A DNA stretch of 64,000 bases from a bacterium (GCA_041640655.1 JBEPZV010000001.1:64001-128000), one strand, 5' to 3'. Counted from the stretch's first letter, positions 7,455 to 19,378 are shown. The notes: generated by a model not told the origin, from the sequence alone. Made by a program: numbers and translations.

Positions 7455-7600
7455 ACTCGGTTCTTTGCCTCCCTCCTGTCCGTCTTGCTCCTCAAGCGGC
7501 CCCAGACGTTCACCAGGAAGCGGCTAATGAGCAGCAGCCCGAGGCTCGCCTGGAAGAAGAAGAAGACGAAGAACAGGAGAATGAGGTCCCTGATCTCCAT
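7451..7600 (-). CDS. Small hydrophobic membrane protein (49 aa)
   Basis: [37 protein letters not shown]; stop overlaps the sigma ATG (ATGA). Confidence 0.55.
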
Positions 7601-7699
7601 AACCTCTCGCTCCTCATGTTGAACTCCGACGAGCAGTGGATGAAGTCCAGTCTCCTGGCCCATTGCGCCAACCGGCGAAGAGTGGCCGCCGGCAGGCAT

Positions 7700-7975
7700 T
7701 CATGGGCGCACAGCATCGCGCCTGTGAGCGTCATCTTGGCCATCGTTCACCGCAGATCGGGCACTCCAACCGATCTCAAGATCGGCCGGAGACTCCTGTG
7801 GCTGAGATCGAATTAACCACTCGGCGTCAAATTCATGGCCGCACTGTCGGCACCGGACTGTGGGAAGGCATTCCGCATAGCCCAGGTCACAGCGAAGTCT
7901 GAGGTCGAAATTCCGCGTCGAGCAAAGGGGACATCCAAGCGTGGCCAACACTCGTTCGATGTCTTCGAGCTTCAT
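7700..7975 (-). CDS. Small Cys-rich, Zn-ribbon-like protein
   Basis: CPLC...C...C...CRQC; GGAGGAG RBS before MKLEDIE. Confidence 0.65.
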   Translation of the reverse strand: MKLEDIERVLATLGCPLCSTRNFDLRLRCDLGYAECLPTVRCRQCGHEFDAEWLIRSQPQESPADLEIGWSARSAVNDGQDDAHRRDAVRP

Positions 7976-8025
7976 ATTGGCTTTCTCCTCCACCGGCCAC
8001 TATACGCGATGCCGAGGAGAGAGAA

Positions 8026-8087: not shown

Positions 8088-9863
8088 TCACTTCAACTTG
8101 GACAACCACTCGACGATTTGCCTCCGGTCCTCATCCGAAAGCTGCGGAAAGCGGGCGGGCATCGGGTCTTTCAGGCCATAGGCGCGCGGATCCACAAGCA
8201 GGTTGAGCAGGTCCTCCGGGCGGCGATGGGGCTTTTCGATAACGCCGATCAATCGCGGGCCGATATTCCCTTCGCCACGCGGGCCGTGACAGAACGCGCA
8301 ATGGGCGGTGAAGGCGGCCGGAGGAGGCAGCGCAGCGCGTTCGGCCGCTTCCGGTTGAACGACCCGCTTCACCATCTTGATCTTCTTGGCAGGTGGTGTT
8401 GAGACAGCCACCGTTTGAGGCTTCGGCGCTTGGATCGGTTGATCAAGCGTCAGGAGCCACTCGGCGATGGCTTCTCGGTCCTCGGGCGCGAGCTGCTTGA
8501 ACTTCGGCATAGAGCCAGGTGACGGCTCTCGTTGGTGACCCACGAGATAATCAATCAGGAAGGATTTACTCAGATGCCGATTCCTGGCCAGCTTCACCAG
8601 GGCTGGAGCCATCGCCCCACCCATGGCGTCCGCGCCATGGCAGTTGGCGCAGTTGGCGAAGTAGATCTTGAGCACCCGCGACCCGACAACCGGAGGATTC
8701 TTCACGACCGGCGGGTTGACCGGGATCGAACGACCGATCTCCTGCGGGACAAATGGAGCTTTTATGAACGCTCGCGCCTCTTCCTCTTGAGCGCGAAGCT
8801 TGGCGCTGAATTCGGGATGCGTCGCATCCTGGTATTTCGACAGCGCTCCGAGTGCGACACTGCCTCCCAGCGCCAACGCCAACGCACTGACGGCGATGGG
8901 CCGACGAAGCGGGTGTCGCTCCGGTCGGCGATCAATGAACGGGAGCAGAAAGAGCACCCCAAAGAGCACCGTCGGCAGACCTACTGTCGGGATCAGAGCG
9001 AGCTTTCCCGGAAAATACTTGAGCAGTTGAAAGAGCGGGAGGAAGTACCATGGGGGCCGGGCGAGATAATCCGATGTCGGATCGGCCTGCGGCCCCAGCC
9101 GCGCCGGGAACTTCACCGCCAGGATCAAAAGGACGAGGAAGACGATGAAGATGAAGAGCATGTCTTTGAAGAGCTGATACGGATAGAACGGTTCGACCTT
9201 CGCATCATCCCGATGATGATACGGTCCGGCTGCGCCCGCCCGCCGAAAGAAGTAGAGGTGAAGCACAACGAGCAGCAGGAGCGCCAGCGGCAGCAAGAGA
9301 ATATGCGTGACAAAAAACCGCGACAGCGTCAGCGTCGTCAGATCATGGCCGCCGAGCAAGATGCGCTGCATCACCTCGCCAACGACCGGGACTTCACCGG
9401 CGACGCTCGTGCCCACCTTGGTGCCGAAGTACGCTTCCTGATCCCACGGCAGCAAATAGCCGGTGAAGGCAAAACCGAGCACGACAAGCATCATGACCAC
9501 GCCTACCATCCAGAGCAACTCGCGCCGCTGTTTATACGCGCCGAAGAGGTACGTTTGTGCCAGGTGGGCAATCAGAATGATGATCATGGCGCTGGCCCCA
9601 TAGGAATGGAGTCCGCGAATGATCCCTCCCATCGGCACGACCTTCTGGATATAGGCAACGCTCGCGTGCGCGTGGTCGGCCGACGGCACGTAGTACATCG
9701 TCAGGAAAATACCCGTGGCCGCCTGAAGCAAAAAGAGAAAAATGAGCGCGCTGCCAAACACATAAGCGAAGCGCGCCCCGCCGCGAATCGGCTCATCCAG
9801 GATAGCGCGTGAAATCTTCTTGACGCCCGTCCGCTCATCAATCCAATCGTAAAGACTCGCCAT
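8088..9863 (-). CDS. Cytochrome b of a Rieske/cytb complex fused to two c-type heme domains
   Basis: GLHSYGAS, AHLAQ, GYLLPWDQ, RFFVTH, Qo motif PPWY, CANCH and CAFCH. Confidence 0.92.
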   Translation of the reverse strand: MASLYDWIDERTGVKKISRAILDEPIRGGARFAYVFGSALIFLFLLQAATGIFLTMYYVPSADHAHASVAYIQKVVPMGGIIRGLHSYGASAMIIILIAHLAQTYLFGAYKQRRELLWMVGVVMMLVVLGFAFTGYLLPWDQEAYFGTKVGTSVAGEVPVVGEVMQRILLGGHDLTTLTLSRFFVTHILLLPLALLLLVVLHLYFFRRAGAAGPYHHRDDAKVEPFYPYQLFKDMLFIFIVFLVLLILAVKFPARLGPQADPTSDYLARPPWYFLPLFQLLKYFPGKLALIPTVGLPTVLFGVLFLLPFIDRRPERHPLRRPIAVSALALALGGSVALGALSKYQDATHPEFSAKLRAQEEEARAFIKAPFVPQEIGRSIPVNPPVVKNPPVVGSRVLKIYFANCANCHGADAMGGAMAPALVKLARNRHLSKSFLIDYLVGHQREPSPGSMPKFKQLAPEDREAIAEWLLTLDQPIQAPKPQTVAVSTPPAKKIKMVKRVVQPEAAERAALPPPAAFTAHCAFCHGPRGEGNIGPRLIGVIEKPHRRPEDLLNLLVDPRAYGLKDPMPARFPQLSDEDRRQIVEWLSKLK

Positions 9864-9873
9864 GCTGCTCTCC

Positions 9874-10467
9874 TCACGCGATGACGTGCTTATCTGGCAC
9901 GCCTTGCCGGAAAAACCGGTATCTCACCTGAAGCAGGCCATCCTTCACTCGATGCTCCAGCGTATCCATCCCGCGCGGCGTCGGCCCGCCGAGTTTGCGG
10001 CCATCGCGGGCCCAGGCGCTGCCGTGACACGGGCAGATAAACCCGCTGTCCGCCGCATTGATGGTGCAACCAAGATGAGGACAGATGGCCGAGTAGACCA
10101 CCAGATGGTCACCGTTTTTCACGATCCAGACAAGCTGCTGTGTGTTGAAACGCCCCCAGCCGCCGTCTTGCGAGATGACGACCGCCCTTTTGACCGGCTC
10201 CCCATCGGGGATGTCGTCAACCGGAGCGACGTCGGTCCAATCCTCCTCGATCGAGAACTTCTTGAACGCCGGAAAGAGGCTGAACCCGGCCAACAGCACG
10301 CTCATCACACCGCCGATGGTGGCGGCCATCAGACCGATCATCAGGCCGAGGAACGATCGCCGCGGAGCCACATTCCGAATCGGTTGGGCCGACGACGCTC
10401 CGTGTTCGATTTTTGATGTCTCCGGCTGTCGCTGAGGAGATGGCGAGACCTTTTGCTCGTGATTCAT
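9874..10467 (-). CDS. Rieske [2Fe-2S] subunit with Tat signal
   Basis: RRSFL, CPHLGC, CPCHGS. Confidence 0.93.
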   Translation of the reverse strand: MNHEQKVSPSPQRQPETSKIEHGASSAQPIRNVAPRRSFLGLMIGLMAATIGGVMSVLLAGFSLFPAFKKFSIEEDWTDVAPVDDIPDGEPVKRAVVISQDGGWGRFNTQQLVWIVKNGDHLVVYSAICPHLGCTINAADSGFICPCHGSAWARDGRKLGGPTPRGMDTLEHRVKDGLLQVRYRFFRQGVPDKHVIA

Positions 10468-10524: not shown

Positions 10525-10995
10525 TCACGATGTTTGGAGGTTCGCCGTTGGTTCCCCGCCAGACATCTGACCCAGGATCGCGCCGTAGATGATATGTCCC
10601 ATCAGGCTCCCGGCGACCGTCATCATCGGCTGCGGAGCATGACTGGAGAAGAATCCGGCGCCCATCATCGGCATGACCACGGCCTGAGAGACCAACCAGA
10701 GCATCAGCCCCCAGATGAGGCCTTTGCGCCACGGTGCGCCGGGCAAACGGTCGTAGAGCAAAAAAGCGAAGATCAACGGAAAAATCACCGACCCGTTCAC
10801 AAAATGAAGAACCATGCCCATGAGCCACGCGCCACTCATGGGCTCGGGCATCGTCTGGCTCATCATGCCGCCGAGCATGGCGGCCACGTCCATCTTCGGC
10901 ATCCCCATGAGCGGAGCCAGATACATGATCACGGTCATCACCAGCGTGGCGACGAATCCGCCGAGGATCGCTTTCTCAACGTTCTTGCGCTCCAT
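10525..10995 (-). CDS. Met-rich four-TM membrane protein (DUF6789/DUF2938-like)
   Basis: AILGGFVATLVMT, MGMPKMDVAAMLG, HFVNG, GHIIYGAILG; GGAGG RBS. Confidence 0.75.
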   Translation of the reverse strand: MERKNVEKAILGGFVATLVMTVIMYLAPLMGMPKMDVAAMLGGMMSQTMPEPMSGAWLMGMVLHFVNGSVIFPLIFAFLLYDRLPGAPWRKGLIWGLMLWLVSQAVVMPMMGAGFFSSHAPQPMMTVAGSLMGHIIYGAILGQMSGGEPTANLQTS

Positions 10996-11187: not shown

Positions 11188-11898
11188 ATGACGGATCGGA
11201 CGAAACGGATAGCGAAGGCGCTCGCGGTGGTCGCCTTCGCCGCCAGCTCAAGCTATCTGCTTCTCGGCAGCGGTCGGTCGGATGCGGCCCGCATCGAAAA
11301 CCGTCTCGCGCCGGAATCGCGCGCCCAGGCCCAAAACCCGTGCAATCCCTGTCGAGACAAAGCCCGCCAGCGCGCGCAGAATCCCTGCAATCCTTGCGCC
11401 CAGAAGAAAAAGGCGCAAAATCCCTGCAATCCCTGCGCCGGAAAGATGCCGGCCACGGGGAAGGTCTATCAAGATGCGACAACCTATCGGAGTTGGGCGA
11501 AGCTGACAGAGCCCACACTGAGCGTGGGTCACGGCGGCAAGTACGTCGTCACCTACGCGAACTCGTCCGCCGAGGCGACGATCAAAAGCGGCCGGTTCCC
11601 GTTCAAAAGCGGGGCCAAATTGATCAAGGAAGGGTACGAGGACGCCGGCGGCAAGCCGGGCGAGCTGACGACCCTCTACGTGATGGAGAAACGCGGTCGC
11701 GATTGGTACTACGCCATGACCGACCTTCAGGGCAACATCCAGATGGAGGGGATGAGCAAGCAAGCCCAGATGTGCTCAAGTTGTCACACCGGAGCCAAGA
11801 AAACGGATTACGTCTTCACGGCGGCGCAGCTCAAGGGCCAATCCCCGACCATGCCCGCTAATCCCTGCAATCCGTGCGCCAAAAAGAAGAAAGGCTGA
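11188..11898 (+). CDS. Secreted cytochrome P460/c'-beta family protein with four NPCNPC repeats
   Basis: AAGGAGG RBS; signal peptide; YRSW, HGGKYVVTYAN, LIKEGY, YVMEK, WYYA, C-terminal CSSCH..DYVF. Confidence 0.8.
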   Translation: MTDRTKRIAKALAVVAFAASSSYLLLGSGRSDAARIENRLAPESRAQAQNPCNPCRDKARQRAQNPCNPCAQKKKAQNPCNPCAGKMPATGKVYQDATTYRSWAKLTEPTLSVGHGGKYVVTYANSSAEATIKSGRFPFKSGAKLIKEGYEDAGGKPGELTTLYVMEKRGRDWYYAMTDLQGNIQMEGMSKQAQMCSSCHTGAKKTDYVFTAAQLKGQSPTMPANPCNPCAKKKKG

Positions 11899-11957
11899 GA
11901 CCCCGGCAATCCCTGCGGGGTGAAGGCGACCCTCGCCAGGGGAGAAATTTCGCCCAA

Positions 11958-11973
11958 CGTAAGGAAGATTACA
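11958..11973. promoter_or_regulatory. Crp/Fnr-like box upstream of the DUF5818-like gene
   Basis: CGTAA-GGAAGA-TTACA, same arms as 11055-11070. Confidence 0.6.
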
Positions 11974-12034
11974 GTGGCCTGTCAGAGCAAAGCATAGAAT
12001 GTTCGGTGCACATTCAACATACGGGAGGAAAAGC

Positions 12035-12403
12035 ATGAAGAAACTGTCTGCGGTTGGATGTCTCGTCGCTCTTTCATTTGTCGCCGCCTTTGCTCAACAG
12101 CGGACCTTCGTCGGCAAGATCGGCGATAGCCAATGTGGTTTGAAGCATGCGATGGGCATGGGCAGCGACAAGGAGTGCACGCTCAAATGCGTCCAGGCGG
12201 GCGGGAAATTCATCCTGGCCGACCTGAAGAACAACACCGTCTACCAGCTCGATGACCAGAAGACGCCGGAGAAATTCGCCGGGCAGATGGTGAAGGTCAC
12301 GGGCACGCTCGACCGAAAGACCAAGACCATCAAGGTCGCGAGCATTGAGCCGGCTCCGGAAAACCCGTGCAACCCCTGCGCGAAGAAGCCGGGGAAGTCG
12401 TAA
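12035..12403 (+). CDS. Secreted DUF5818-like protein with C-terminal NPCNPC
   Basis: Signal peptide; GKIGDSQCGLKH, ECTLKCV, FAGQMVKVTGTLD. Confidence 0.75.
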   Translation: MKKLSAVGCLVALSFVAAFAQQRTFVGKIGDSQCGLKHAMGMGSDKECTLKCVQAGGKFILADLKNNTVYQLDDQKTPEKFAGQMVKVTGTLDRKTKTIKVASIEPAPENPCNPCAKKPGKS

Positions 12404-12532
12404 AACCCCTGCAATCCGTGCGGGAAGAAAAAGCCCGAGAGCCGGACCTGAGTACAGAGCTTCTGCCGAGAGCGCGACCGACCGTGAACTCTCAGCACGA
12501 CTACGGCCGGTCGCAAGGAGGATAGGCGCCTC

Positions 12533-13555
12533 ATGAGAGCCGAACACAAACGATCGCATCAGGCTCACGGGCTGCTTATCCTCGCCGGCCTTCTTGGGCT
12601 GACGACGGTGATCTGGATCGGGCTCTCGCCGCGCCTGCGGCAAGCCATGTCAGGAGGGCAGCAGAGCCGACAGCCCACCGCTCCTCCGGCGATGAAGCTT
12701 TTACCCGGCGGTCGCTTCGAGATGGGGAGCCCACCGGCGGAAGCGCACCAGGCGATCCACAATCGCGCTGACACGACCGGCGCTCCCGACCCCGCTCATG
12801 AGATTTATGAAGACGAAGGCCCGGTTCACGAGGTCGCGCTCTCACCCTTTTTCATTGACCTTCACGAGGTGACCAATGCGGAGTTCGCGCTGTTTGTTCA
12901 AGCCACCGGGTACAAGACGGATGCCGAGCGCAAAGGGGCATCCTGGGTCTTTCGCCAGGGCGCCAGGGATTGGGAGTTCATCCGAGGCGCCGACTGGCGC
13001 CATCCCCTCGGACCCGACGACTCCATTGCCGATCGAATGAATCATCCGGTCGTACACGTCTCCTGGAACGATGCTCTCGCCTATTGCCGATGGGCGGGCA
13101 AACGACTGCCGACCGAAGCCGAATGGGAATATGCCGCCCGCGCCGGCCATCGGGGTCAGACTTATCCTTGGGGCAATGAGCTGAAACCCGGAGGCAAGCT
13201 CATGGCCAATTTCTGGCAGGGGCACTGGCCCGACAGGAATCTGCTCGAAGACGGCTACTACTACACGGCGCCGGTCTGTTCCTTCCCGCCGAACGATTTC
13301 GGCCTCTGCGACATGGTGGGAAACGTCTGGGAATGGACAGCCGACTGGTATGCCGAGGATTACTACGCCCACAGCCCCGTTGCGAACCCCCAGGGTCCGT
13401 CATCGGGAGAGATGCGCGTGGCGCGAGGAGGATCGTGGTTTTGCTCGCCCAATTACTGCGGAGCCTATCGCGTGGCTTTCCGCGGCAAGAGCCCGCCCGA
13501 CGCGAGCTTCAACAACGTGGGATTTCGCTGCGCCAAAGATGCCAAAGCGCCTTAA
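12533..13555 (+). CDS. Formylglycine-generating enzyme (FGE-sulfatase/SUMF1) family protein with N-terminal hydrophobic anchor
   Basis: FEMGS, HEVTNAEF, RLPTEAEWEYAAR, GNVWEW, RGGSWFCSPNYC, GFRC. Confidence 0.9.
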   Translation: MRAEHKRSHQAHGLLILAGLLGLTTVIWIGLSPRLRQAMSGGQQSRQPTAPPAMKLLPGGRFEMGSPPAEAHQAIHNRADTTGAPDPAHEIYEDEGPVHEVALSPFFIDLHEVTNAEFALFVQATGYKTDAERKGASWVFRQGARDWEFIRGADWRHPLGPDDSIADRMNHPVVHVSWNDALAYCRWAGKRLPTEAEWEYAARAGHRGQTYPWGNELKPGGKLMANFWQGHWPDRNLLEDGYYYTAPVCSFPPNDFGLCDMVGNVWEWTADWYAEDYYAHSPVANPQGPSSGEMRVARGGSWFCSPNYCGAYRVAFRGKSPPDASFNNVGFRCAKDAKAP

Positions 13556-13856
13556 TGCCGATAATCGCGAGAGTGGTTCCGTTGGTGTTCCCCTGCTCCA
13601 GGTCTACGTGGCGCGTCACTGCCCCAGTTGTGAAGAAGCCCGGCGACTGGCCCATCTGGCGGATTCGCTTTTCCCCGCCCTCACCGTGCACGTTATTGAT
13701 CTGGACGAATCGCCAGCCGATGGGGTGGATGTCTTCGCCGTCCCCACCTATGTGTTCAACGGCCGAGTGTGCTTCCTCGGCAACCCATCGGAGGAAGAAC
13801 TGTGCGAAGTACTCGATCGCTTGCTTGAATCCTCCCTCGAAGATGCGGTAGAGTGA
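13539..13856 (+). CDS. Thioredoxin/glutaredoxin-like protein (start uncertain)
   Basis: VYVARHCPSC, AVPTYVFNG, FLGNPS. Confidence 0.7.
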   Translation: MPKRLNADNRESGSVGVPLLQVYVARHCPSCEEARRLAHLADSLFPALTVHVIDLDESPADGVDVFAVPTYVFNGRVCFLGNPSEEELCEVLDRLLESSLEDAVE

Positions 13857-13888
13857 AGCCCAGCTCTTTGAGAAAGGAGGATCACGCC

Positions 13889-14656
13889 ATGCCGTCAAAT
13901 CCCTTCGCCTCCATCGCCAGAAGGATGACCGGTCAACGTCGCGCCTCGCCCACTGCCGCAGCCGCCGACGATCACCCGGCGCGAGAGCGATTGAGCGAAA
14001 AGCTCGGATACTTATCGGCGATGAAGATCTTTCAGGACCTCAGCCGCGAGGAGCTGATGGCCATCGAGCGGGCTACGACGATGATCACGTGCCCGGCCGG
14101 TCGCGTGTTCTACATCCCGGGAGAAACCGGCGAGGTTCTTTTCCTGCTCAAGCGGGGGCGAGTTCAGATCTATTGTCTCTCGCCGGATGGGCGCAAACTG
14201 ACGGTGAAGATCCTGGAGCCGATGACGTTTTTCGGGGAGATGGCCATTCTCGGCCAGGGGATGTATGACACGTTCGCCGAGGCGATGGATGATTGCGTGA
14301 TTTGCGTCATGAGCCGCCAGGATGTCGTCCGGCTTCTTCTCAGCAAGCCGCCGGTGGCCGCGCGCATCTGTGAGGAGCTGGCGCGTCGGGTGATGGAGAC
14401 CGAGCAGCGATTGGAAGAGCTGGCCTTCAAGGGCGTGGACTCACGGCTGGCCGGCTTGCTGATTCGCCTCGCCGGCCAGGGAGACGAACTCGTCGGTTAT
14501 AGCCACCAGGAGCTGGCGGAACTCCTCGGCGTCTATCGCGAGACGGTCACCCTGACCTTGGACCGGTTCAAGGCCCGAGGGCTGATCGAGATCGGGCGCC
14601 GGCGCCTCAAGCTGCTGAACCGCGCTGCGTTGGCCGAGATCGCCAAGTCCCCGTGA
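13889..14656 (+). CDS. Crp/Fnr family transcriptional regulator
   Basis: FFGEMA, HQELAELLGVYRETVT; AAGGAGG RBS. Confidence 0.92.
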   Translation: MPSNPFASIARRMTGQRRASPTAAAADDHPARERLSEKLGYLSAMKIFQDLSREELMAIERATTMITCPAGRVFYIPGETGEVLFLLKRGRVQIYCLSPDGRKLTVKILEPMTFFGEMAILGQGMYDTFAEAMDDCVICVMSRQDVVRLLLSKPPVAARICEELARRVMETEQRLEELAFKGVDSRLAGLLIRLAGQGDELVGYSHQELAELLGVYRETVTLTLDRFKARGLIEIGRRRLKLLNRAALAEIAKSP

Positions 14657-14826: not shown

Positions 14827-16242
14827 TCAACCTCCCCGCGAAGGCTCCTCGGCGCGGACGGGGGCCACGGCAGCGTCCGAACGAGCCGGGACATGCGCGG
14901 TGCCGCCCATCCCCGGCGAGAGGAAGTTGTACGCGACCTCACCGTGCAGCACCAGATCCAATCCCGCGATCTCTTCCTCTTCGGTGACGCGGAGCGGAGT
15001 CATCCGGGCGACCACCTTGAGGATGAGGAAGGTCATCGCAGCAGCCAAAGCCCAGGTCGCGACCACGCCGATGAGCTGAACGAGCAGCTGCCCGGGATTG
15101 CCGAAGAGCGCCCCATCGGCGCCTATGGGGTTCACGGCGCGACTGGCGAAGAGCCCCGTTGCCAGAGCCCCCCATGTCCCGCACAGGCCGTGAACGCCGA
15201 AGACATCCAGGGAATCATCGTAGCCCAAGCGCGGCTTGAGGATGTTGACGCCCCAGTATCCGATCACCCCAGCTCCGATCCCGATCGCGAGGGCTGAGAG
15301 GGCCGAGACATACCCGGAAGCAGGGGTGATCGCGACCAATCCGGCGACAACTCCGGTCGCCGTCCCCAAGACCGTCGGCTTGCCACGGTGCCCCCACTCG
15401 ATGAAGGCCCACGTGAGACCGGCCACGGCCGCCGCCGCATGCGTCACGGTGAAGGCCACCGCGGCCAAACCGTTGGCAGCCAGAGCGCTCCCGGCATTAA
15501 ACCCGAACCATCCAAACCAGAGCAGCGCCGCCCCCAGGATCGTCAGCGGCAAGTTGTGAGGAGGGAGGACCTTCTCCGGATACCCCTGGCGCCGACCGAT
15601 GACCAGCGCTGCCACCAAAGCTGAGACGCCGGAGCTGATGTGAACGACCGTCCCACCGGCGAAGTCCAAAGCACCCAGCTTCCCGAGCCATCCCCCGCCC
15701 CACACCCAGTGCGCCAGCGGATCATACACCAGAGTCGCCCACATCACCGCGAACAACACAAACGCGGTGAAACGAATCCGCTCGACGAATGTCCCCGTGA
15801 TGAGTGCCACGGTGATGACGGCGAACATCCCCTGGAACATGACGAAGGCCAGATGCGGAACGTTCATCCCCGCGTTGGGCTCCCCGCCGACCCCCTTGAG
15901 CCCCCAATACGTCAAGCGACCGATGATCCCCCCAAGATCGGGGCCGAACGAGAGGCTGTATCCCAACACCACCCATTGCACGCTGATCAGACACAGGAGG
16001 AAGAAACTGTGCATGAGCGTCGAGAGCACATTGCGCTGACTGACCAATCCCCCGTAGAAGAGCGCCAATCCCGGCGCCGTCATCAGCATCACCAGCGCAC
16101 TTGCCGTGAGCACCCACGCCGTATCGCCGGCATCCACCGTCGGTGTCGAGGTGGCTTGCGCCCAGACCGTTGGCCCCACAAGCAGCGAGAGGCCAATCCC
16201 CCACAAAAGCTCACGACTCCATCGCCGATGCGGTCTCCTCAT
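14827..16242 (-). CDS. amtB: Ammonium transporter
   Basis: GDTAW, DFAGGTVVH, WFGWFGFNAGS, DDSLDVFGVHG. Confidence 0.96.
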   Translation of the reverse strand: MRRPHRRWSRELLWGIGLSLLVGPTVWAQATSTPTVDAGDTAWVLTASALVMLMTAPGLALFYGGLVSQRNVLSTLMHSFFLLCLISVQWVVLGYSLSFGPDLGGIIGRLTYWGLKGVGGEPNAGMNVPHLAFVMFQGMFAVITVALITGTFVERIRFTAFVLFAVMWATLVYDPLAHWVWGGGWLGKLGALDFAGGTVVHISSGVSALVAALVIGRRQGYPEKVLPPHNLPLTILGAALLWFGWFGFNAGSALAANGLAAVAFTVTHAAAAVAGLTWAFIEWGHRGKPTVLGTATGVVAGLVAITPASGYVSALSALAIGIGAGVIGYWGVNILKPRLGYDDSLDVFGVHGLCGTWGALATGLFASRAVNPIGADGALFGNPGQLLVQLIGVVATWALAAAMTFLILKVVARMTPLRVTEEEEIAGLDLVLHGEVAYNFLSPGMGGTAHVPARSDAAVAPVRAEEPSRGG

Positions 16243-16279
16243 CGCCATCCCTCCTTGCAGGAAGATCCTCAGCGCCCGT

Positions 16280-16675
<396 letters not shown>

Positions 16676-19378
16676 TCATCCGACGGAGAGCGCCTCGGCG
16701 AGCGCGCGCTCGACCTCGGCGATGAACGCCGGTGCGAGCTTTCGCCCCTCGGCATCGGTGATGTAAAAGACATCGAGCGCCAGACTCTTCTCCGTCGTCA
16801 CCTTCGCCAGGACGATCGTGAGGCCAAGAGCTTGAAGCGTGCTCGCGATCCAATACGCGAGCCCGGGCTCATCTTCGGCCACGACCTCGAGGACCGTGCT
16901 CGTGAGGGAGGCGGCATTGTCGCACCGGATGAGCGGAGCTTGGCGATCGCGCGCCCGATGTCGAAGACTTCGCCTCCGCCACCTGGCGACGGCGCGAGCG
17001 ACATCGTAACGGCCCTCCACGGCAGCCCTCACGTCCGCTTCGATCGCCGCCCACCGCTCGGGGGAGACGGGACACGCCGACCCGATCTCGCAGACCCGAA
17101 ACGTGTCAATGATGATCCCATCCGCGCGCGTATAGGCCTCGGCGCTGAGGATATTGAGGCCGTGCGCCCAGAGCGTCCCCGCAATGCGCGCGAACAATCC
17201 CGGCTGATCGAAGGTGCTGAGGGTCAGCTCCGTGCAGTCCCCCTCGCGAACGGTGCGCCAGTGGAGGACGACGAACTCCTCGGGCACGCGACGAACCAGA
17301 CGCAGGTGCTCGGCGATCTGCTCCGGCAGCGTCGCACGCCCATAGCGCGGGGGCAGCTCGACCAGATGGCGCTCGATCTCCGACCGGGAGAATTCCCCAT
17401 CCAGCGCGCGCGCGACCTCCTCAATCGGCAGCCGCTCCCCCTCCCCCTGACGCGTGAGCCAGCGGCGCGCCCGCTCGTACAGCTCCCACAGCAGAAGGCC
17501 CTTCCATTGGGTCCACACGCCCGGCCCCACGCCCGCTGTATCCGCATAGGTGAGCAGCAGCAACATATTGAGGCGCTCAAGCCGATCGCCCTCACCGAGA
17601 GCGGCCACAAGTTCCGCGATCACCCCCTCTTCGGTCACATCGCGCCGCCAGGCCAGATGCGACATGAGCAGATGGCGCGCGACGAGGAAAAGGACCGCCT
17701 GCTGCCGCTGCGGCCCCAGCCCCAGGCGCCTCAGAGCTCGACGGGCCAAGCGCACGCTGCGCGGCACATGGCCGTGACCTCGCCCCTTCCCGAGATCGTG
17801 AAACAGCAGACCGAGATAAAGGGGGACGACATCGGTGATCTCGCTGAAGACCTGACGGAGGCGCGCCTGTTGCGCATCGTCGGGGTTCTGCCAAATCCGA
17901 TCCAACGCCTCAAGAGCCTGGAACGTATGCTCATCCACCGTATAGGCGTGATCCGGATCGTGCTGCACCAGAAAGGTGAGACGTCCGAACTCCGGAAGGA
18001 AACGCCCCAAAACCCCGGTCTCATGCATCAGGCGGAGCATGCGGGCGACCTCGCCGCGATGGCCGACGATCTGCAGGAAGAGATGGCGCGCTTCCGGCCT
18101 CTGGCGCAGGATCCGACCGAGCGCCGGAGCGTGTTCCCGAATCGTCCGCCGCAGCTCCTCGCTCAGCGTGACGCGCTCGGTTTGAGCCACCCGAAAGGCC
18201 TCCACAAGCAGAAGCAGATCCCAGGCGGGCGACACATCGAGCCGCCCTCTCTCCTCTCTGAGAAAGAGCTTCCCGTCCGCGATCTCAAAAGCCCCAAGGC
18301 GCCGACGCTCTCGAAATGCCCACAAGCGCCTGCGCGTGGTGGCCCCCCAGGCGCGCGCCAGAAAGCTGCGGGCGATCTCGTGCAGGCCGTGCGCCTGATG
18401 ATAATACTCCCGCATGAAGACCTCAGAAGCATGCAATCCGCGCCGGGGCATATACCCGAGATGAGCGGCCAGCATCGGTTGGAGATCCACGGTCAACTGA
18501 TCCGTCTTCCGCCCCGTCAGGAAGTGCAACCCGTTCCGCACGCGAAGCAGGAAATCGTGAGCGGAACGGAGCACGGCGTACTCGGCGCTGCTCACATGGC
18601 CCTCCGCACAGAGGGCCTCCACGCCCGCACTCCCATACTGGGCGTGCCCCACCCATCGAATCGTGTGGAGATCGCGAAGTCCTCCGGCACCTTCCTTCAC
18701 ATGAGGCTCTTGCACACCGATGATCCCCCCCATCCGAGCATATCGTCGTTCCCACTCACGGCGCAGGGCCTCGAGAAACAGCAGCCTCTGCCGCCGATCC
18801 TCATAAAGGGCGGCCTGGAGAGACTCGCGGAGTTGGCGGACAATCGCCGGACTGCCCCACAAGTACCGGGTCTCCTGAAGCGCCGTAGCGACGCGCGGGT
18901 CCTCGCGCGCCACGCGAACGGATTCGCCAATGGAACGAACACTGTGCCCGATCACAAGACCACCATCCCAGAGGAGCCGTAAGACCTGCTCGATGAACGC
19001 GCGAAGCTCTTCCGGAGCCCGATCCCCGTGGACGAAGGCCAGATCCACATCCGAGAAAGGAGCCAATTCGCACCGTCCGTATCCTCCCACGGCCACGAGA
19101 GCACAGGCTCGAGCGACCTCCGCCCGAGCGTCCACGCGCGCGCTCACCCACTCCGCCACCTGACAGACGATCAGATCCACAATAGCGCTCCACCGATGAA
19201 CGACCTCGCTTCCGCGAGCACAACGACGGTGATGCCGCAGAAGCCGCTCCCTCTCAATGACGATGAAAGCCCGGATGCCACGAAGCAGCTCCTCCTGATC
19301 GAGGTTCGACCCTCCGACTCCGAGCCGCTCCCCCGCATGAGCCACCGTCTTCTCCCACGCTCTCAACATCAGCCTCAC
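16676..19378 (-). CDS. glnD: [Protein-PII] uridylyltransferase
   Basis: AVGGYGR..SDVDL, KEGAGGLRD, HAYTVDEH, HDLGKG, two C-terminal ACT domains. Confidence 0.94.
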   Translation of the reverse strand: MRLMLRAWEKTVAHAGERLGVGGSNLDQEELLRGIRAFIVIERERLLRHHRRCARGSEVVHRWSAIVDLIVCQVAEWVSARVDARAEVARACALVAVGGYGRCELAPFSDVDLAFVHGDRAPEELRAFIEQVLRLLWDGGLVIGHSVRSIGESVRVAREDPRVATALQETRYLWGSPAIVRQLRESLQAALYEDRRQRLLFLEALRREWERRYARMGGIIGVQEPHVKEGAGGLRDLHTIRWVGHAQYGSAGVEALCAEGHVSSAEYAVLRSAHDFLLRVRNGLHFLTGRKTDQLTVDLQPMLAAHLGYMPRRGLHASEVFMREYYHQAHGLHEIARSFLARAWGATTRRRLWAFRERRRLGAFEIADGKLFLREERGRLDVSPAWDLLLLVEAFRVAQTERVTLSEELRRTIREHAPALGRILRQRPEARHLFLQIVGHRGEVARMLRLMHETGVLGRFLPEFGRLTFLVQHDPDHAYTVDEHTFQALEALDRIWQNPDDAQQARLRQVFSEITDVVPLYLGLLFHDLGKGRGHGHVPRSVRLARRALRRLGLGPQRQQAVLFLVARHLLMSHLAWRRDVTEEGVIAELVAALGEGDRLERLNMLLLLTYADTAGVGPGVWTQWKGLLLWELYERARRWLTRQGEGERLPIEEVARALDGEFSRSEIERHLVELPPRYGRATLPEQIAEHLRLVRRVPEEFVVLHWRTVREGDCTELTLSTFDQPGLFARIAGTLWAHGLNILSAEAYTRADGIIIDTFRVCEIGSACPVSPERWAAIEADVRAAVEGRYDVARAVARWRRRSLRHRARDRQAPLIRCDNAASLTSTVLEVVAEDEPGLAYWIASTLQALGLTIVLAKVTTEKSLALDVFYITDAEGRKLAPAFIAEVERALAEALSVG

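Follow-up and report, generated by a model that had tools for sequence, protein, structure and literature searches.

To our knowledge, the formylglycine-generating enzyme (FGE) is known for one job, which is the maturation of sulfatases, and in biotechnology it is used to install aldehyde tags. A member of the same family, NirV, is encoded beside copper nitrite reductase genes. Two other kinds of protein with which the locus described here can be compared are metallothioneins, marked by Cys/Lys-rich sequence, and periplasmic Cu(I) proteins, marked by Met/His-rich sequence. We analysed a stretch of 64,000 nt of bacterial DNA (GCA_041640655.1 JBEPZV010000001.1:64001-128000, here called the window) in which a membrane-anchored FGE is encoded directly downstream from two exported proteins, a cytochrome P460-type haem protein and a DUF5818 protein, both of which carry the motif NPCNPC (hereafter, the tag). 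The module spans positions 11188-14656 on the plus strand, plus three divergently oriented genes on the minus strand. In the genomes that we compared, the anchored FGE is co-inherited with tails made of Asn-Pro-Cys (NPC) units and follows neither the carrier domain nor sulfatases, pointing to the locus as one version of an undescribed periplasmic (cell-envelope) module. As for NirV, an FGE-family gene is here partnered with a periplasmic nitrogen-cycle-type redox protein and not with a sulfatase; unlike the NirV case, there is no nirK in the window and the partner is a Cys-tagged haem protein.

The closest described enzyme is the aerobic Cu-dependent FGE (SUMF1/FGE; 6muj, 2q17, 1y1e), which turns peptidyl-Cys into formylglycine by means of Cu(I) and O2 and with which the FGE of the window shares fold, family, Cys pair, Ser, Trp and export. 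Its comparison with the FGE of S. coelicolor (6muj) gave an E value of 2.4e-84 and that with the human FGE (1y1e) an E value of 5.6e-82. The active site of the S. coelicolor enzyme, as described in PMC2459300, comprises C272/C277, S269 and W234. In the window enzyme, which carries RGGSWFCSPNYC and an N-terminal hydrophobic anchor segment, the residues that correspond to the catalytic Ser and the Cys pair are Ser301, Cys304 and Cys309 (GGSWFCSPNYC aligned with GGSYLCHDSYC of 6muj), and the Trp, within VWEW, is kept. Judging from its sequence, the enzyme is a copper-type FGE in every testable respect, with activity predicted. It differs from the described enzymes in its signal-anchor and, together with the other FGEs linked to P460-type genes, it belongs to a subgroup with a His-rich insertion before the catalytic domain. 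Around the active site there is also a consistent difference between the tag-linked FGEs, which read GAYRxGFRGKSP and NFWQGxWP, and three sulfatase-adjacent FGEs, which read xNYRPAARSxATP and NWWQGxFP.

Aerobic FGE goes with type I sulfatases, whereas here the gene accompanies NPC tags and no credible sulfatase was found in any of the six genomes of the genus, leaving an FGE without a sulfatase to serve. Precisely, the genome of the window (89.8% complete) had no match to the sulfatase profile PF00884 above cut-off, and in the five congeners the PF00884 matches were only partial (profile positions 204-298; protein lengths of 525-999 residues) and were equally present in the three congeners without FGE. 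No type I sulfatase substrate with CxPxR was found in the same genome. The second FGE-family gene of this genome (G000, contig C68:1440-2231, L009) has no Cys pair, and its FGE-family domain, which starts near residue 306, makes up the C-terminal portion of an open frame of 561 residues; it is taken to be EgtB-like, of the sulfoxide-synthase type.

A preliminary description of the locus, made from the window, had claimed that two unrelated exported folds share NPCNPC, with four copies in the P460-family protein and one in the DUF5818 protein, that these genes lie directly upstream from an anchored FGE with the catalytic Cys pair, followed by a CPSC redoxin and a Crp gene, and that there is no sulfatase in the window. 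These claims agree with the sequence and with the Pfam matches (Table 1). A degenerate DNA pattern for NPCNPC gave six matches in the window, all in frame and on the plus strand, against 0.00 expected from 100 shuffles, and in the whole genome (3.1 Mb) all of its six matches were inside this locus. The codons for Asn, Pro and Cys differ synonymously among copies and species while the residues are constant; because the codons vary and the residues stay fixed, we considered NPCNPC a selected protein module and not a DNA repeat. The tag is thus real, under protein-level selection and, within this genome, specific to this locus.

To survey the tag, the repeat region alone was used as query (proteins of 129-413 residues, E<=0.01); it matched 415 proteins, of which the best 120 were fetched and are those described below unless otherwise said. 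The median number of NPC units per protein was 16, and up to 39 were counted in each of 21 tag-matching proteins that were inspected. The arrays were at the N-terminus only in 47 proteins, at the C-terminus only in 9 and at both ends in 64. The spacers between NPC units (4709 residues) are 38% Ala and 27% Lys, with 1.2% Asp+Glu and nearly no aromatics, and in 17/120 proteins Met+His make up at least 20% of the spacer residues. The carrier domains were P460-type (PF16694), SoxA/TsdA-like monohaem c (PF21342/PF03150), YceI (PF04264), DUF5818-like and, in a loop, DUF6789 (PF20587), and some proteins consisted of the tag without any Pfam domain. Judged by these domains, the tag is a portable module on mutually unrelated exported carriers. 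No Pfam or NCBIfam model matched the repeat in seven repeat-rich proteins. The tails are strongly basic. In the AlphaFold model of the window's P460 protein, the tags have a predicted local distance difference test (pLDDT) value <50, that is, they are predicted to be disordered, and the P460 core is confident. The tags are like metallothioneins and periplasmic Cys-, Met- or His-rich copper proteins in their Cys and Lys content, in their few aromatics and acids, in their predicted disorder and in their Met/His variants; they differ in their strict Asn-Pro-Cys unit, in being tails on folded exported proteins and in their link to an FGE-fold enzyme.

A scan for NPCNPCA in one genome per species gave at least 124 stretches and, by record titles, the matches listed span Alpha-, Gamma- and Zetaproteobacteria, Acidobacteriota, Gemmatimonadota, Nitrospinota and others. 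Separately, the 18-mer AATCCGTGTAATCCGTGT recurs identically, and singly, on different contigs in G407, G411, G349 and G384; this is probably no tag array but a dispersed repeat of the DNA, unrelated to the tags.

The link between tag and FGE was examined in three samples. In 61 genomes of the same class, with the genome of the window (G000) counted among the tag bearers, clustered multi-copy tags were present in seven (G000, G002, G005, G009, G016, G032 and G046), always on a P460-type protein, and full-length FGE orthologues (E<=1e-139, 61-100% identity) were present in exactly those seven. The FGE gene adjoins the tagged P460 gene in 7/7, with the DUF5818 gene in between in G000 and G002. 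The profile hidden Markov models of P460 and DUF5818 were built without the tag repeats. In G006, a genome of the same genus that is 97% complete, the P460 core is 76% identical and untagged at both ends, and there was no FGE-family match at E<=1e-20; none of five untagged P460-like genes (in G006, G012 twice, G017 and G043) had an FGE neighbour. The next-tier FGEs (E around 1e-90; G009 contig 12, G044 and G034) have lipoprotein-type signals and are likely of the ordinary kind, since two of them (G044 and G009 contig 12) adjoin genes with sulfatase-like N-termini, read by eye.

In the second sample, represented by 401 genomes of the phylum, clustered motifs were rare and were found only in G000, G016, G067, G160, G379 and G383. 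In G160 and G379 a DUF6789 protein has the tags in its third loop, and the next gene downstream encodes the same type of FGE; this type was also found directly beside a tag-bearing DUF6789 gene in two acidobacterial loci of the broad scan (L048 and L077), all four sharing the signature CSxxYC[GS]AYRPGFRGKSP. From these pairs of tagged DUF6789 and FGE it follows that the FGE goes with the tag rather than with the carrier.

The third sample consisted of 54 tag loci from many phyla, each with at least two motifs and a length of 3 kb or more. Within 1.5 kb of the tag genes there were 15 FGE-family open reading frames (ORFs) in 146 kb, against none in the 596 kb beyond, and 14 of the 15 were within 161 bp of tag genes. 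A separate FGE-like clade of proteobacteria, in which the Cys pair is spaced CG[VI]C, includes eleven of the 15 and one further ORF at the cut locus L052 (in the tree this clade has 11 rows and a support of 100/99); a twelfth locus, L072, is without the CG[VI]C pair and is not in the tree, which was computed without rows X_L074, X_L060 and TAGprot_L072. Since each of the two clades is found beside tags, two different FGE-fold lineages adjoin NPC tags. Taken over these samples, tags and FGE are linked far beyond chance.

Table 1. Features of the module in the window, with positions counted from its first nucleotide
Feature	Position	Strand	Basis or remark
Cytochrome b fused to two c-type haem domains	8088..9863	-	PF00033 161.6 bits; PF13442 x2, PF00034 x2
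Rieske 2Fe-2S protein	9874..10467	-	PF00355 42.1 bits; adjoins cytochrome b in relatives too
DUF6789 membrane protein	10525..10995	-	PF20587 71.6 bits; start set at MERKN as in G005
Exported cytochrome P460/c'-beta-type haem protein, tagged	11188..11898	+	PF16694 48.2 bits (cut-off 27); CSSCH haem motif at the C-terminal side
NPCNPC copies in the P460 protein, after the signal peptide	11335-11352, 11380-11397, 11419-11436	+	
NPCNPC copy near the P460 C-terminus	11860-11877	+	
Decayed second C-terminal repeat behind the P460 TGA stop, DPGNPCGVK	11899..11925	+	Comparison with G002/G005
Exported DUF5818 (OB-fold-like) protein, one C-terminal NPCNPC	12035..12403	+	PF19135 33.8 bits (cut-off 27); TAA 12401-12403
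NPCNPC copy at the DUF5818 C-terminus	12362-12379	+	
Sixth NPCNPC copy, in frame directly behind the DUF5818 TAA	12404-12421	+	Missed in the preliminary description
Orphan in-frame repeat NPCNPCGKKKPESRT behind the DUF5818 TAA	12404..12451	+	Runs up to TGA
Membrane-anchored near-canonical FGE	12533..13555	+	PF03781 288.8 bits (cut-off 23.3), profile positions 3-255 of 255
Small thioredoxin-fold CPSC protein	13539..13856	+	Overlaps FGE stop and Crp start
Crp/Fnr-family regulator	13853..14656	+	PF00027 63.3 bits, PF13545 57 bits

As for what the FGE does beside these tails, the reading that we prefer is that it acts on the tag cysteines, which, from the sequences and their gene context, appears plausible with somewhat less than an even chance of being right. 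In FGE, as described in PMC12123546, the substrate cysteine joins a bis-thiolate Cu(I) site. The tag is a candidate substrate, FGE being an enzyme that takes flexible, exported peptides with Cys-x-Pro. The cysteines of the tag would enter the Cu(I) bis-thiolate site of the exposed FGE domain in the way that sulfatase cysteines do, and the enzyme would oxidise some of them to formylglycine; the Cys/Lys tails would then become aldehyde/Lys tails able to form imine links or to trap nucleophiles. A TlpA-like WCGPC protein, which relatives have and which was not located in this genome, would supply the periplasm with thiol reductant; expression would be under the control of the Crp regulator and its thioredoxin-like partner, and electrons would be exchanged between the tagged haem protein and the Rieske/cytochrome b complex encoded beside it. 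A more specific proposal, which we consider rather unlikely, is a copper-type FGE with a natural class of non-sulfatase substrates, in which cysteines of NPC/Lys tails would be converted to aldehydes and the resulting poly-aldehyde/poly-amine tails would cross-link proteins or capture nucleophiles, hydroxylamine for example, at a P460-type haem wired to Rieske/cytochrome b. A complex prediction for FGE residues 45-340 with P460 tag residues 44-92 gave a score of 0.27 (mark 0.32) and was counted neither way.

Several results weigh against an action of the FGE on the tags. The preliminary description had considered the first repeat, C-N-P-C-R, an exact CxPxR; its letters are correct, and the Arg is a peculiarity of the genus that follows one of the six copies in the window and 2 of the 970 repeats in the 120 proteins, where the residue after NPCNPC is Ala in 644, Gly in 173, Asn in 103 and Ser in 40. 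Judging from these counts, the exact CxPxR is a coincidence. The candidate substrate has therefore, in comparison with that of the aerobic FGE, the Cys and the Pro of CxPxR and not the Arg at +4; the repeated unit is Asn-Pro-Cys and not Cys-x-Pro, and there are single NPC-A-A-K units without Pro at +2. Since the Arg is absent and the unit is Asn-Pro-Cys, activity on the tags would need an altered specificity, and formylglycine in the tails is something that we purely infer. On the side of the genomes, the 7/7 co-occurrence does not represent seven independent events, because the relatives are kin; the YceI-type carriers of G067 and G383 have no FGE nearby (on short or cut contigs); 39 of the 54 tag loci have no FGE-family gene in the DNA fetched; and in 5/5 such proteobacterial genomes an FGE-like gene is found elsewhere, with no gene of at least three NPC units within 1.5 kb. 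Finally, the tree leaves the tag-associated and the sulfatase-adjacent acidobacterial FGEs unseparated, in a polytomy, and so does not show the tag-linked acidobacterial FGEs as a clade of their own.

Three other explanations have to be weighed. In the main one, the tails would be metallothionein-like binders or buffers of soft metals, of Cu(I) and perhaps of Hg(II) or Ag(I), with the FGE adjoining them as a user or handler of Cu(I) and DUF6789 as a Met-rich membrane partner; we regard this as possible, if doubtful. It agrees with spacers that are Ala/Lys-rich, acid-poor and nearly without aromatics, with the Met/His-rich variants, with the Met content of the window's DUF6789 (13.5%) and the tagging of this protein in other lineages, with the His-rich insertion of P460-linked FGEs and with the conserved set of Cys, His, Cys and Cys in DUF5818; MerA-like genes (HMA plus pyridine-nucleotide disulfide reductase) in 5/54 tag loci and a MerT-HMA gene beside the module of G009 fit it as well. 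However, by gene names the window's module has no copper-export, copper-oxidase or CopZ-type gene, the CNPC pairs may be disulfides because the periplasm is oxidising, and metal binding leaves unexplained why a catalytically complete FGE, and not a simple chaperone, has been kept and co-lost with the tags. Metal-binding tails and an FGE that acts on the tags are compatible, and both may hold.

The tails could instead be swinging cysteine arms, comparable to the carrier arm of SoxY, which would carry sulfane sulfur or redox equivalents to the haem domains, with electrons passing via Rieske/cytochrome b and the FGE-fold protein processing or regenerating the arms. Most carriers are indeed haem proteins, P460-type and SoxA/TsdA-like monohaem c, all seven tagged-P460 loci have Rieske/cytochrome b genes, and YeeE-type sulfur transporter genes and c-type cytochromes occur in 6/54 and 8/54 tag loci, respectively; yet YceI, DUF5818, DUF6789 and the tag-only proteins are carriers without haem, the DNA fetched around the DUF6789-FGE pairs is free of cytochrome and Rieske genes, and neither the gene names in the window nor the Pfam scan, which covered the module, included a Sox, Dsr, rhodanese or sulfide:quinone reductase gene. 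We consider such arms improbable. Very improbable, in our opinion, is that the adjacency is meaningless, the tails serving as linkers of basic, low-complexity sequence or for membrane binding, and the FGE maturing a sulfatase or another canonical substrate encoded elsewhere. A sulfatase could be missing from a genome that is 89.8% complete, and many tag loci have no FGE nearby; but a meaningless adjacency is already largely contradicted by the lack of a credible sulfatase in 6/6 genomes of the genus, by FGE orthologues and tags being present or absent together over the 61 relatives, by the density of FGE genes near tags (15 per 146 kb vs 0 per 596 kb), by Cys, Asn and Pro being invariant while codons vary, and by the two distinct FGE clades each beside tags. 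We leave a small probability for an explanation not conceived so far.

Regarding the carriers in the window, the P460 protein shares with the described cytochromes P460 and c'-beta (7ead, 6hiu, 7s5o, 2je2) the Pfam domain, the C-terminal CxxCH and a beta-sheet core, and differs from them in its identity of about 22-25%, in the disordered Cys/Lys tails at both ends and in adjoining Rieske/cytochrome b genes and not ammonia-oxidation genes. Its predicted core, residues 88-190, has a pLDDT of 76-92, the haem-binding end of the model being of low confidence, and a Foldseek search with this core matched cytochrome c'-beta (7ead, 4.1e-5) and P460 (6hiu, 1.1e-4) about equally, with a probability of 1.00. 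The DUF5818 protein was modelled as a small beta-barrel with an inserted helix (pLDDT 78), for which a structure search gave no match at E<=0.001 and weak OB-fold rows only. In 43 homologues C34, C48 and C52 are invariant and H38 is nearly so, with Met residues nearby, and the C34/H38/C48/C52 set looks like a metal or cofactor site. DUF5818 homologues numbered 144 at E<=0.001; among the best 120 listed, tags were present on 10, the closest ones.

Both carriers show signs of tag decay in this genome. Where the DUF5818 gene of the window has TAA, that of G002 has CAA (Gln) and reads on through two more repeats; in comparison with G002, one repeat has also been deleted in the window and the old stop lost, and an orphan repeat reading NPCNPCGKKKP is left intact behind the new stop. 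A database protein of 146 aa that is 98% identical to the DUF5818 protein (P0121) has three repeats. The TAA at 12401 may be a recent truncation, a polymorphism or an assembly error. In the same way, G002 and G005 encode a further QNPCNPC(R/G)(R/K)KKP where the P460 remnant of the window lies behind TGA. G005 has no DUF5818 gene and the 3' end of its P460 gene (L037, about 9400-9560) matches the 3' end of the DUF5818 gene of the window, which indicates an apparent deletion between tag repeats of the two genes; in G002 about 6 kb (L036 9084-15037), holding an ABC transporter, an amidohydrolase fusion and unannotated ORFs, are inserted between the two tagged genes. The tag repeats seem to act as recombination sites.

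Among the neighbouring genes, the divergent DUF6789 gene encodes an untagged protein with four hydrophobic segments, in which 21 of 156 residues are Met (13.5% vs 1.8% in 10 other proteins of the window), concentrated in the loops between the segments. By the positive-inside rule, these Met-rich loops, and the loop tagged in other lineages, would face the periplasm. Genes for Rieske/cytochrome b accompany the tagged P460 gene in 7/7 loci, with cytochrome b/c in all and no called Rieske gene in G046. In more distant relatives, belonging to other families (G046, G032 and G016), the gene order is FGE, then a membrane-anchored WCGPC (TlpA-like) redoxin, then Rieske and cytochrome b/c; in the genus of the window the locus has no WCGPC redoxin gene, nor has the window, and DUF6789 stands between P460 and Rieske. 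We rejected a Sco-type copper-chaperone role for this TlpA-like redoxin, its site being WCGPC.

The preliminary description had suggested a test for the co-occurrence of FGE, redoxin and Rieske/cytochrome b genes with the tags and, as one of two readings, Cu(I)-binding tags that the redoxin keeps reduced. The linkage of the FGE and of the Rieske/cytochrome b genes is borne out, and the role given to the CPSC protein is not: by inspection it has no signal peptide or membrane segment, so that it is probably cytoplasmic and cannot itself keep periplasmic tags reduced. It matches PF13192 with 24.6 bits (cut-off 24.8) and TIGR00411 with 37.2 bits, below cut-off, and the homologues in G009, G046 and G016 match PF13192 with 31.8, 27.7 and 26.6 bits, respectively. 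Homologues adjoin Crp in G002, G009 and G046, the copy of G016 being at a contig start with no Crp seen; a Crp gene is in the loci of G002, G005, G009, G046 and G032, the last without a Trx_3-like gene. The CPSC protein is probably a cytoplasmic partner of the Crp regulator and not the tag reductant. The regulator itself has a cNMP-binding domain and a Crp-type helix-turn-helix, and no Fnr-type N-terminal Cys cluster in its sequence. We also considered a CTGTC-N5-GACAG inverted repeat upstream from the P460 gene as a Crp site, and dropped it as it is not kept in G005.

Further genes were observed around the module and around the other tag loci. Two small Cys-containing ORFs of 77 and 97 aa lie between the cytochrome b gene and an ECF sigma gene (7510-7993, minus strand) and are conserved in G002 (79 and 84 aa), without a Pfam match there. 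Directly downstream from the module (14827-19378, minus strand) there are genes for an ammonium transporter and a PII protein and a long ORF taken, by eye, as GlnD; ammonium transporter and PII are also downstream from the module in G002, an adjacency not seen in other families. Next to the tagged-P460 module of G009, at L038 2586-4728, there are a gene of the thioredoxin fold, a MerT-HMA fusion and a short HMA/reductase fragment. In the proteobacterial tag loci (L045-L123) the commonest neighbour was DUF6969 (22/54), then histidine kinases (11/54), and other neighbours, again of 54 loci, were a 146-aa exported protein without a Pfam match (8), cytochrome c (8), YeeE-type (6) and MerA-like genes (5). 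A DUF6969 search of the window's genome gave no match, the control genomes being likewise without signal.

In the library searched, we found no publication on NPCNPC as a protein feature or linking formylglycine with cytochrome P460, nothing on a copper FGE with a non-sulfatase role and nothing relevant on DUF6789. The tail itself, which has no family model, is found in many phyla on hundreds of exported proteins of the haem, lipocalin-like and membrane kinds, and solving its function would explain a recurrent and mis-annotated feature of environmental genomes. The genus of the window offers natural comparisons, with genomes that have both the tags and the FGE (G000, G002 and G005), a genome that has neither (G006) and, in the window, freshly truncated tags. 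Here a complete FGE has been kept in a sulfatase-free genus and is gained and lost with a cysteine-repeat tail; if our reading is true, this would represent a second natural class of FGE substrates, or a new role of the enzyme in copper or thiol handling.

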